From contig LBOM01000001.1 of assembly GCA_000989515.1 (NCBI GenBank), positions 1-59,259 of the forward strand: a stretch of 59,259 nt of DNA, in the 5' to 3' direction. Shown here in pieces: positions 40,591 to 42,183 of the stretch (positions are counted from its first letter, which is position 1; every line of letters starts with the position of its first letter). Origin of the DNA: Candidatus Nomurabacteria bacterium GW2011_GWE1_32_28. Lineage in GTDB: Bacteria > Patescibacteriota > Minisyncoccia > Phycocordibacterales > UBA9973. The notes under the pieces were generated by a model. The model ran no database searches, was not told the origin of the DNA, and was given only the letters and a program-made list of their open reading frames with translations. The position numbers and the translations under genes are program-made.

Positions 40591-42183
40591 TTTAGTTAGA
40601 GTTTGATCCTAGCTCAGGATGAACGCTGGCGGCGTGGATAAGGCATGCAAGTCGAACGGACTTCATTTTTCCAGAGATGCGATTATATCAAGTCAAAGGT
40701 CGTTTGAAGTTAGTGGCGAACGAGGTAGTAATACATAGGAACTTCCCTCAAAGTCGTGAATAATTCGTCGAAAGACGGACTAATACACGATAGTCCCTCA
40801 GGGGTAAAGTTTTAACGCTTTGAGAAAGGCCTATGCGATATCAGCTAGTTGGTAGTGTAATGGACTACCAAGGCTATGACGTCTAGGGGAGGTGAGAGCC
40901 TGACCCCCACCGATGGTACTGAGACACGGACCATACACCTACGGGTGGCTGCAGTCGAGAATCTTCCACAATGGACGAAAGTCTGATGGAGCGACGCCGC
41001 GTGATTGATGAAGTCCCTTTGGGACGTAAAGATCTTTTATGAGGGAAGAAGTTTATTGACTGTACCTCATGAATAAGAGGCTCCTAATCTCGTGCCAGCA
41101 GGAGCGGTAATACGAGAGCCTCGAGCGTTATCCGGAATTATTGGGCGTAAAGGGTGTGTAGGTGGTTTTGTTAGTCTTTTGTTAAAGTCCCGAGCTTAAC
41201 TTGGGGAGGGCGAAAGATACGGCAAAACTAGAAAGTGCGAGAGGTGTACGGAACTCATGGTGTAGGGGTGAAATCCGTTGATATCATGGGGAACACCAAA
41301 AGCGAAAGCAGTACACTAGCGCATATTTGACACTGAAACACGAAAGCGTGGGTAGCGAATGGGATTAGATACCCCAGTAGTCCACGCCCTAAACGATGAT
41401 CTCTCGCTATTCGGAGTATCGACCCTCTGAGTGGCTTAGCTAACGCGTTAAGAGATCCGCCTGGGAAGTACGGCCGCAAGGCTAAAACTCAAAGGAATAG
41501 ACGGGGACTTGCACAAGCAGTGGATTATGTGGTTTAATTCGATGGTAAACGAAGAACCTTACCAAGCTCGCAGAAACGCGAGGCCTCGCAAGACTCTAGG
41601 ACAGGTGATGCATGGCCGTCGTCAGTTCGTGGTTTGAATTGTTCCCTTAAGTGGGGTAACGAACGCAACCCTCGTTGTGTGTTACAAGTGTCACACGATA
41701 CTGCCCCCGCCAAAGAACATAATTATCAATTATCAATTACGAATTACGAATGAAAATACAAATAAAAAATGTGTTTAAATTCGTAATTCGTAATTCGTAA
41801 TTTTTAATTGTTTTTTTCGGCGGGGGAGGAAGGAGAGGATGACGCCAGGTCAGCATGTCCCTTGATACCTTGGGCTACACACATAATACAATGGCCACTA
41901 CAACGCGCAGCGACGAGGCGACTCTGAGCTAATCGTCCAAAAGTGGCCCCAGTTCGGATTGGAGTCTGCAACTCGACTCCATGAAGTTGGAATTGCTAGT
42001 AATCACAGGTCAGCTAAACTGTGGTGAATACGTTCTCAAGTCTTGTACTCACCGCCCGTCAAGTCAAGGGAGCCGGGAGTACCCGAAGTCTCTACATAAG
42101 TAGGGCCTAAGGCAAGCTCGGTGACAGGGACTAAGTCGTAACAAGGCACGGCTAGCGGAAGCTGGTCGTGGAATAATTCAATT
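40591..42183 (+). rRNA. rrs: 16S ribosomal RNA (divergent, CPR-like; contains a 107-nt insertion)
   Basis: agagtttgatcctagctcag at 40598, gtgccagcaggagcggtaatac, attagataccccagtagtcc, caccgcccgtca, aagtcgtaacaagg, and h45 cacggctagc-ggaa-gctggtcgtg at 42147-42170. The ends are approximate. Confidence 0.95.
41712..41818 (+). repeat. AT-only palindromic insertion in the 16S h40 loop built from AATTACG heptads
   Basis: Flanked by cccccgcc / ggcggggg. The arms are caattatcaattatcaattacgaattacgaat and attcgtaattcgtaattcgtaatttttaattg. Confidence 0.85.

Follow-up and report, generated by a model that had tools for sequence, protein, structure and literature searches.

An AATTACG heptad hairpin at the tip of an extended 16S rRNA helix 40 in a Nomurabacteria bacterium

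Introduction

The intervening sequences (IVSs) of bacterial rRNA, such as those in helices 25 and 45 of the 23S rRNA of the enterobacteria, are removed by RNase III without subsequent ligation. In Candidate Phyla Radiation (CPR) bacteria, nearly half of the 16S rRNA genes carry insertions (PMC11270868), and some short CPR rRNA insertions that have no open reading frame (ORF) and are not introns remain uncharacterised and are suspected of being IVSs processed by RNase III (Tsurumaki et al. 2024, PMC11270868). We found no published report of helix 40 (h40) of the 16S rRNA as an insertion site, with the reservation that the published positions of the insertions 16IS1-10 appear in figures only. 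Here, we analyze a stretch of 59,259 nt of contig LBOM01000001.1, from Candidatus Nomurabacteria bacterium GW2011_GWE1_32_28. This whole stretch, with a G+C content of ~29%, is hereafter called the window and all coordinates refer to it. By the names that its MurD homologues bear, it falls in Candidatus Nomurabacteria / Paceibacteria, within the CPR. The apical loop of h40 in its 16S rRNA gene holds a 107-nt insert built largely from heptads of the AATTACG type, an unusual variant of the short ORF-less CPR rRNA insertions already known.

Several other systems resemble this insert in one respect or another. Hancock and Dover reportedly described in 1990 how the expansion segments of eukaryotic rRNA evolve by "compensatory slippage," and Elhai and coworkers are said to have described in 2008 the SDRs of Nostoc, dispersed repeats that are mobile and very small. 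The Rickettsia palindromic elements (RPEs) occur in RNA genes. They are palindromic repeats of 100-150 bp, inserted both between genes and, in-frame, into protein genes (PMC1779305). The heptameric simple-sequence repeats (SSRs) are a recognised and unexplained class, over-represented in many bacteria, situated near start codons, sometimes arranged as inverted pairs and sometimes common to distant phyla (PMC4679880, PMC4692102). Known examples are TAACTGA of the Beggiatoaceae, Cyanobacteria and Bacteroidetes (PMC4679880), GGGAATC of Xanthomonas (PMC4692102) and the short tandemly repeated repetitive (STRR) sequences of Calothrix/Nostoc; the AATTACG repeat (AATTACGAATTACG) did not occur in the published literature that we searched.

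Our analysis suggests that the insert works like an IVS or an expansion segment, is built like an inverted pair of heptameric SSRs and is tolerated in the manner of the RPEs. The reading that we favor, to which we give a probability of roughly 0.6, is that the 107 nt make up the distal portion of an h40 expansion specific to this lineage, an IVS-like or expansion-like hairpin that is probably trimmed by RNase III.

Results

A Heptad Hairpin in the Loop of Helix 40

The 16S rRNA gene occupies positions 40591-42183 of the forward strand (Rfam RF00177, 1312 bits, model positions 1-1533). In its structure-aware cmscan alignment the sole large insertion consists of 110 unaligned nt between CUGCCCCCGCC and GGGGGAGGAAGG, which form the loop of the hairpin immediately 5' of the universal GGAGGAAGG. 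The equivalent E. coli hairpin is h40 (stem 1161-1165/1171-1175, loop 1166-1170). A preliminary description of this stretch had placed a 107-nt insert at 41712-41818 in the apical loop of h40, between stem strands at 41704-41711 and 41819-41826, and had seen in it an extended, imperfect hairpin made up of heptads in tandem and of their complement, neither coding nor an intron; the coordinates are exact, and the alignment, fold, repeat, ORF and Rfam searches bear out the rest.

All parts of the structure lie on the forward strand. The 5' strand of the basal h40 stem, cccccgcc (CCCCCGCC, 41704-41711, from the cmscan alignment), is followed by the 5' side of the proximal h40 extension, AAAGAACAT, which runs on into AATTAT (41712-41720) and belongs to a covarying helix whose base has homologues in the related loci L044, L011 and L071. 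Next comes the left heptad array, (AATTATC)2(AATTACG)2AAT (41721-41751), which was recovered by Tandem Repeats Finder (TRF) and by pattern search and pairs with the right array. Between the two is a central spacer of 26 nt without heptads, with an apical mini-hairpin, GAAAATACAAATAAAAAATGTGTTTA, in the predicted fold (41752-41777). The right array is (AATTCGT)3, then AATTTTTAATT (41778-41809), AATTCGT being the reverse complement of AATTACG. The 3' side of the proximal extension, GTTTTTTTC G (41810-41818, from fold and homology), and the 3' strand of the basal stem, ggcggggg (GGCGGGGG, 41819-41826, from cmscan), then lead into the conserved GGAGGAAGG.

The insert is 81% A+T (A45 C10 G10 T42), and together with its flanks it folds into one continuous hairpin of -58.9 kcal/mol, against -20.9 +/- 3.5 kcal/mol for shuffled sequences (z = -10.9). 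The predicted duplex is AU-rich, nearly perfect and coaxial with h40; it extends for 42 bp beyond the 8-bp basal stem, giving 50 bp, and has a run of 17 consecutive pairs formed by AAUUACGAAUUACGAAU and its complement. The longest ORF that overlaps the insert has 39 aa if started inside it and 59 aa if counted from the flanking rRNA. No intron family of Rfam matches the insert, even with the cutoff relaxed from the gathering threshold to E <= 1, and no other RNA family does so apart from sub-threshold matches to generic long-hairpin (miRNA precursor) models; a terminator scan did not call the insert terminator-like.

Conservation of the Insert between Sister Species

The product of a gene located 283 bp 3' of the 16S gene is encoded on at least 23 public contigs. 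Three of these, L001 (ENA), L003 (a Rifle scaffold) and L004 (the GenBank MAG GCA_003511065.1), have the identical insert with identical junctions; L270 (GCA_001871725.1, Candidatus Nomurabacteria CG1_02_31_12) and L273, which represent a sister species of the window organism (SecA 91.4% identical, flanking DNA ~84-85%), have the insert with one extra A, located in the spacer.

Between the window and L270 there are 0 substitutions in the 107 nt of the insert and one indel, compared with 9 substitutions in 101 nt and 6 indel positions in the 3' trailer, 11 substitutions in 40 nt and a 20-nt indel in the h33-34 variable region, and 4 substitutions in 656 nt of core 16S. The insert is conserved like core rRNA between these sister species and is not decaying. 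The h33-34 region (~41559-41600), where the window 16S is without 20 nt that are present in L001-L003, L270 and L274, is the most divergent part among the otherwise near-identical 16S sequences.

One assembly, L002 (positions 2132-3718; GCA_003542535.1), has flanking proteins, including SecA, that are 100% identical to those of the window, and a central 16S that is only 94.7% identical. Its h40 tip is a different AT-rich structure of ~150 nt, with heptads of the CAATTTT/AAAATTG type and two side hairpins. Either the assembly is mosaic or recombination has occurred within the 16S gene; we used L002 solely as an additional h40 variant and not as evidence for turnover within a species.

The Extension of Helix 40 in Related Genomes

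The relatives were sampled as 80 loci around MurD from species-representative genomes, together with loci around the 16S-adjacent gene, and the h40 comparison rests on eleven further sequences, from nine other species and the possibly mosaic assembly. All 11 are longer than the h40 of E. coli. The extra length is ~30-37 nt in L011, L019, L047, L071, L074 and L079, 45-50 nt in L066, L068 and L082, 99 nt with a GC-rich tip in L044/L274 and ~150 nt in L002. Across the Nomurabacteria-type relatives the helix is lengthened from ~5 bp to ~20-22 bp. When the seven shortest sequences were aligned to one hairpin, compensatory double changes appeared in 13 of its 21 pairs, which argues that the extension is a selected RNA helix. 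Compensatory changes among the relatives are found in the basal stem as well (CCCCCACC/GGTGGGGG, CCTCCGCC/GGCGGAGG and CCCAGCCC/GGGCTGGG).

L044, L011 and L071 have an extension whose base is homologous to that of the window insert (AAAGAACATAATTAT... / ...TAATTGTTTTTTTCG), the L071 sequence being CCAGAGTTCATAATTATTTTAATTGTGATTTCCGG, and thus only the distal ~75 nt are specific to the window lineage. The preliminary description had envisaged an insertion into an E. coli-like loop; the location in the h40 loop stands, but the relatives were already extended. It had also named, as an outcome that would speak against its interpretation, a conserved expansion whose sequence differs altogether in relatives; a conserved expansion with unrelated tips is in part what their 16S genes contain, with the segment itself lying inside h40.

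In a matrix of SecA identities the window and L270 are sisters, L044 (= L274) comes next and the species with shorter h40 follow. Placed on this matrix, the heptad tip belongs to the window and L270 and the GC-rich tip to L044/L274, and the short form of ~30 nt is that of L011, L019 and L047, which group together, and of L071, L074 and L079. The tip states among the relatives are thus heptad, GC-rich and the ~150-nt form of L002, with nine others that have no large tip insert (~30-50 nt). The simplest history would start from an ancestral extension of ~30 nt, with at least two independent fillings of its apical loop, or three counting L002. The sequence of the GC-rich tip (L044 287-355, L274 440-507) is that of a dispersed repeat, ACCTCACCCCTA(A/G)CCCCTCTCC-loop-GGAGAGGGG, further copies of which lie at unrelated non-rRNA loci (L013 10973, L021 17650, L026 15431); this points to the h40 tip as a permissive site that captures hairpin-forming genomic repeats.

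Heptad Arrays in the Window

Dimers of the AATTACG type number 13 in the window against 0.76 expected, and a period-7 AATT pattern has 10 matches against 0.11 expected. With a period of 7, TRF reports 41721-41751, 41778-41802, 48078-48103, 49083-49113 and 1092-1123. Of the exact tandem repeats with at least three copies, two have period 7 and none has a period of 5, 6 or 8-11; the host has essentially one heptamer type only, AATTACG. Its presence in a coding gene and in non-coding DNA, which had been pointed out before, was upheld at two sites in MurD and at 1092-1123.

The three arrays outside the rRNA gene are bare four-unit arrays without an inverted partner. The non-coding array, AATTACG AATTAAC AATTACG AATTACG AATT (1092-1123, reverse strand), lies 4 nt past the stop codon of an ORF at 1128-1487 on the same strand. 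Site 1 of MurD, (AATTACG)3 AATTAAA AAT (48078-48108, forward strand), encodes ITNYELRIKN and is an in-frame insertion of ~8 aa with respect to most homologues. Site 2, AATTAAA AATTACA AATTACG AATTACG AAT (49083-49113, forward strand), encodes IKNYKLRITN and lies inside the MurD ORF (47914-49275). The coding arrays all have the same orientation because the reverse, (CGTAATT)n, has TAA in every frame. BLAST searches with the 16S gene and its insert, run against the window and ~1.45 Mb of related genomes, returned matches at the level of the heptads only, and neither the full-length 107-nt unit nor the 26-nt spacer turned up a second time.

Evolution of the Arrays in Related Genomes

Heptads are present at MurD site 1 in the window, L005, L007, L010, L022 and L053, or 6 of ~75 relatives, where the peptide is ITNYELRIKNKK instead of the common ALSKFKN. 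The same site (~+165 nt) elsewhere contains GC-rich in-frame palindromes (L012, L019, L022, L024, L032, L035, L036, L043, L060, L061). Examples are NPEGK(S/Q)xSxGAG from CCCCGAAGG...CGGGG, IIPAKGRAG from ACCCGCC...GGGCGGGT, and SGHKRGLGP; the heptad array of L022 has a GC-rich palindrome inside it. Site 1 is a hot spot for the in-frame insertion of small palindromes that differ between lineages. A second MurD hot spot, at ~+1010 to +1170 nt, has short GC-rich hairpins, for example CCCCTAGGCAAGGCCTAGGGG and CCGCTAGG...CCTAGCGG, in L007, L010, L017, L022, L024, L036, L039, L051, L062, L074 and L081. The MurD homologues range in length from 443 to 487 aa.

Site 2 has a constant length, with an exact (AATTNNN)4 at the orthologous place in many relatives. 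Within each genome the variable triplet is homogenised: ACG x4 in L053, ACC/ACT in L024 and L028, ACA x3 in L025 and AAG/ACG in L030. Three amino acids consequently change together (ITNYELRITN, ITNYQLLITN, ITNYKLQ), and the arrays at site 2 show concerted evolution at the DNA level. Unit sharing between arrays is 0.33 within a genome as against 0.215 between genomes (permutation p about 0.03). In a test for slippage we saw this homogenisation of units and no variation in length, neither in the h40 arrays of the six assemblies nor at MurD site 2, which is fixed at four units.

The intergenic arrays are orthologous in five relatives: upstream of each is a Mur ligase gene, within whose stop codon the array starts. 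The identical order of units in the intergenic arrays of L007 and L022 had been considered as a sign of transposition; this was rejected, the arrays being orthologous and attached to that stop codon. A dispersed sequence of ~30 nt, AACCCAGTAGGTGATTTTACTAAATCA, with a TGATTT/AAATCA mini-hairpin, was observed in L007 (18127-18166), L034 (11143-11181) and L008 (19286-19316 and 799-824). It is nested in heptad arrays at unrelated loci, once in intergenic DNA and once in-frame in MurD site 2 (NPVGDFTKSK).

AATTACG Arrays beyond the Clade

A scan for exact (AATTACG)3 gave at least 120 metagenome stretches from the Joint Genome Institute (JGI) and 64 stretches from IMG/VR, with G+C contents from 23% to 67%. 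As a control in the viral collection, three copies of the scrambled units ATATACG and AATACTG gave 6 and 7 stretches, and AATTAGC and the published heptamer TAACTGA gave 22 and 107. The contigs that carry AATTACG have many heptamer units; their period-7 arrays number 184 and 104, against 1-5 for each of the periods 5, 6 and 8-11. An inverted partner is located at most 120 nt away for 38 of 206 arrays, which is the architecture of the h40 insert, and in some this is followed by a T-run. Among the 184 metagenome and viral loci listed, heptad hairpins like the insert are found in two only, L122 and L135, and no other rRNA gene has AATTACG arrays.

One carrier, L087, is a contig of 65% G+C that belongs to the Chloroflexota by the names of its homologues (Anaerolineales/Promineifilaceae-like). 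It has exact (AATTACG)4 arrays at 698-725, 2846-2873 and 3293-3320, all within 3.3 kb, which are AT-rich islands and one of which has an inverted partner. One viral carrier is a B3/Mu-like phage whose relatives include phages of Leptolyngbya and Microcystis. The heptads behave like a class of DNA-level SSR with concerted evolution and not like a defined mobile element.

The 16S Gene and Its Surroundings

The 16S gene is a stand-alone unit, with no 23S or 5S gene found by Rfam in the 59-kb window, and its h39 is shortened relative to the Rfam consensus (cmscan). A long-range stem may be formed around it by a leader strand at 40533-40564 and a trailer strand at 42390-42421, both read on the forward strand. 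In an ungapped complementarity scan 29 of 32 positions pair, against a mean of 18 and a maximum of 27 for shuffled sequences; in RNAduplex comparisons of the whole leader with the whole trailer, shuffles scored equally well and no stem was discriminated. The scan suggests that a leader-trailer stem encloses the 16S rRNA, as it does in bacteria in which RNase III processes the pre-16S rRNA.

A promoter-like site near consensus, TTGACA-17-TATACT, is located 5' of the gene (40323-40351) and a terminator-like hairpin 3' of it (42420-42453). Further 5' is an ORF of 331 aa (38755-39750), whose L002 counterpart has a Pfam match to deoxyhypusine synthase (PF01916), a family that is uncommon in bacteria. 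Two relatives have insertions of 570-690 nt (L071 941-1631, L070 97-667) at a site that corresponds to position ~1462 of the window 16S, which may correspond to E. coli ~1400, where CPR insertions are frequent (PMC11270868). In many relatives the 16S gene is interrupted by the end of a contig (L270, L271-L274, L013, L057, L059 and L070, as locus starts), and 16S surveys of this clade from short-read assemblies are consequently incomplete.

Discussion

Origin and Fate of the Helix 40 Arm

According to the reading that we favor, h40 of the Nomurabacteria type is extended to ~20-22 bp as a covarying helix, and in the common ancestor of the window species and L270 its apical loop was filled by an inverted pair of AATTACG-type arrays around the 26-nt spacer. 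In other lineages the same loop was filled by different dispersed hairpin repeats, the h40 tip being a permissive hot spot. The two arms are probably the product of inverted duplication or slippage in arrays of heptamers, in other words of compensatory slippage, and not of the transposition of a defined element; they would have been kept complementary because only paired insertion is tolerated at the tip of a helix. The insert is presumably transcribed within the pre-16S rRNA and would have no coding or ribozyme function. Given its long AU-rich duplex and the leader-trailer stem, cutting of the h40 arm by RNase III seems the most likely fate. Such a cut would leave a 16S rRNA in two pieces, with a stub resembling the short h40 extension of the relatives.

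We rate IVS-like excision of the arm by RNase III as only somewhat better than an even chance, and its persistence in the ribosome as a protruding expansion segment as quite possible, because of the 0 substitutions in the insert against 9/101 in the trailer. Several observations weigh against the history and fate that we have outlined. At the rate of the trailer ~9 changes would be expected in the insert and none was seen, an excess of constraint for a spacer that is discarded; either the h40 arm is under selection, which favors its retention or a role in processing, or part of the gene was recently transferred between species. A scan for RNase III signatures across the window and L001-L084, which cover ~20-60 kb per genome, found none. 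The origin of the 26-nt spacer is left unexplained by the mechanism, the copy number of the h40 arrays is identical in six assemblies so that slippage is not demonstrated as an ongoing process, and the cross-phylum survey was selected on AATTACG alone, with most carrier contigs having no taxonomic assignment.

As an alternative, the whole hairpin may protrude from the head of the mature 30S subunit under purifying selection; it would then be a retained functional expansion segment, perhaps making up for the truncated h39 next to it or offering a docking site. The shortened h39 and the sequence identity of the insert in a sister species whose trailer and h33-34 region diverge are both in accord with this, as is the clade-wide covariation, which fits a helix of the mature rRNA for the proximal ~30 nt only. 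In E. coli, moreover, nt 1167 in the h40 loop is a cross-linking site of YbeY, a maturation factor of the 16S 3' end (PMC5995498); the loop is therefore accessible, and an extension of it could affect maturation. However, the distal part is absent or unrelated in close relatives, which leaves no clade-wide distal function, long, perfect duplexes rich in AU are typically cut by RNase III, and a comparison of transcripts with genes in CPR bacteria led to the prediction that most of their rRNA insertions are introns, which are removed (Brown 2015, as cited in PMC9297842). We consider such a retained segment possible but rather unlikely. We give still less credence, as a doubtful proposition, to the broader idea that the heptamer arrays are an actively homogenising cross-phylum system that writes itself into the loops of essential proteins and the tips of rRNA helices, with the h40 arm being a selected expansion segment that arose by compensatory slippage.

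The preliminary description had favored a small mobile or self-propagating palindrome, and a discrete element of this sort, comparable with the miniature inverted-repeat transposable elements (MITEs) or the RPEs, could have transposed into h40, MurD and intergenic DNA. The h40 tip and MurD site 1 do show presence/absence polymorphism at orthologous sites, though at MurD it is one of arrays and not of the 107-nt unit; other dispersed hairpin repeats occupy the same h40 loop and stand in-frame in MurD; the ~30-nt dispersed sequence is nested in heptad arrays at unrelated loci; and the near-identity of the insert between species could mean that it spread recently. The idea holds in spirit for the 7-nt unit and for the dispersed hairpins that colonise h40, but not for the 107-nt unit, of which no second copy was found in the window and the ~1.45 Mb of relatives. 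The other copies are bare arrays, there was no sign of a target-site duplication or of terminal repeats other than the heptads, the intergenic arrays of the relatives are orthologous, and the units of the arrays evolve in concert like an SSR. With no family of full-length copies the insert lacks what defines a MITE or an RPE, and its transposition as a discrete element is improbable. A degenerate group I or II intron, or the remnant of a homing endonuclease, would be in keeping with the intron insertions that CPR 16S genes often carry (PMC11270868) and with the 570-690-nt insertions elsewhere in the 16S genes of L070 and L071, but this origin is effectively refuted by the mere 107 nt, the lack of an ORF and the absence of any intron family even at E <= 1, and the insert is located in a helix loop that is not a known intron site. 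Many of the relatives' contigs do break inside the 16S gene, and L002 has a 16S of mosaic appearance; that the insert is an artefact of assembly or a chimeric junction is nonetheless scarcely credible, because six assemblies from different projects and assemblers, another species among them, share the sequence and its junctions, and all the relatives have an expanded h40.

Comparison with Known Systems

Like an IVS, the insert takes the place of the terminal loop in an rRNA helix, as an extended AT-rich stem-loop with neither ORF nor ribozyme; it is distributed sporadically, close relatives differ in its sequence, and its host belongs to a group rich in rRNA insertions. Unlike the classical examples, it is located in h40 of the 16S rRNA, is made of heptamer arrays shared with coding genes, tops a conserved covarying helix extension and is unusually conserved between sister species, and its excision is putative. 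With the heptameric SSRs it has in common the tandem 7-nt units in 3-5 copies, the many arrays of one preferred unit per genome, their position near stop or start codons, the inverted pairs that form stem-loops and the occurrence of the same unit across distant phyla; it differs in that arrays of the window are situated inside an rRNA gene and, fixed at four units, in-frame in the gene of an essential enzyme, and in that the host is a CPR bacterium with a small genome and essentially one heptamer type.

The RPEs offer a parallel in hairpin repeats of similar size that are tolerated in the protein loops and non-coding DNA of a reduced genome, but RPEs form families of full-length copies, whereas the window has only the 7-nt unit in common among its sites. 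In the eukaryotic expansion segments, too, both arms of a helix tip are mutually complementary simple-sequence motifs. The differences are that the host here is a bacterium, that the motif is a dispersed genomic heptamer and not one generated locally, and that its retention in mature rRNA is putative. The ~30-nt dispersed sequence nested in the heptad arrays of L007, L034 and L008 resembles the SDRs of Nostoc, but the h40 insert of the window does not include it.

Significance

With this analysis one of the uncharacterised short CPR insertions gains an anatomy and a history, and three topics that are usually separate are linked: the IVSs and expansion segments of rRNA, the heptameric SSRs, and the palindromic repeats that occur within coding genes. 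Inserts of this kind lengthen the 16S rRNA and can fragment it, break assemblies and disturb the CPR surveys that depend on primers or alignments. If the h40 arm is retained, it would be a rare case of a large, sequence-conserved expansion in an otherwise reduced ribosome; and if it is indeed a selected arm that arose by compensatory slippage, it would be a bacterial counterpart of the evolution of eukaryotic expansion segments.

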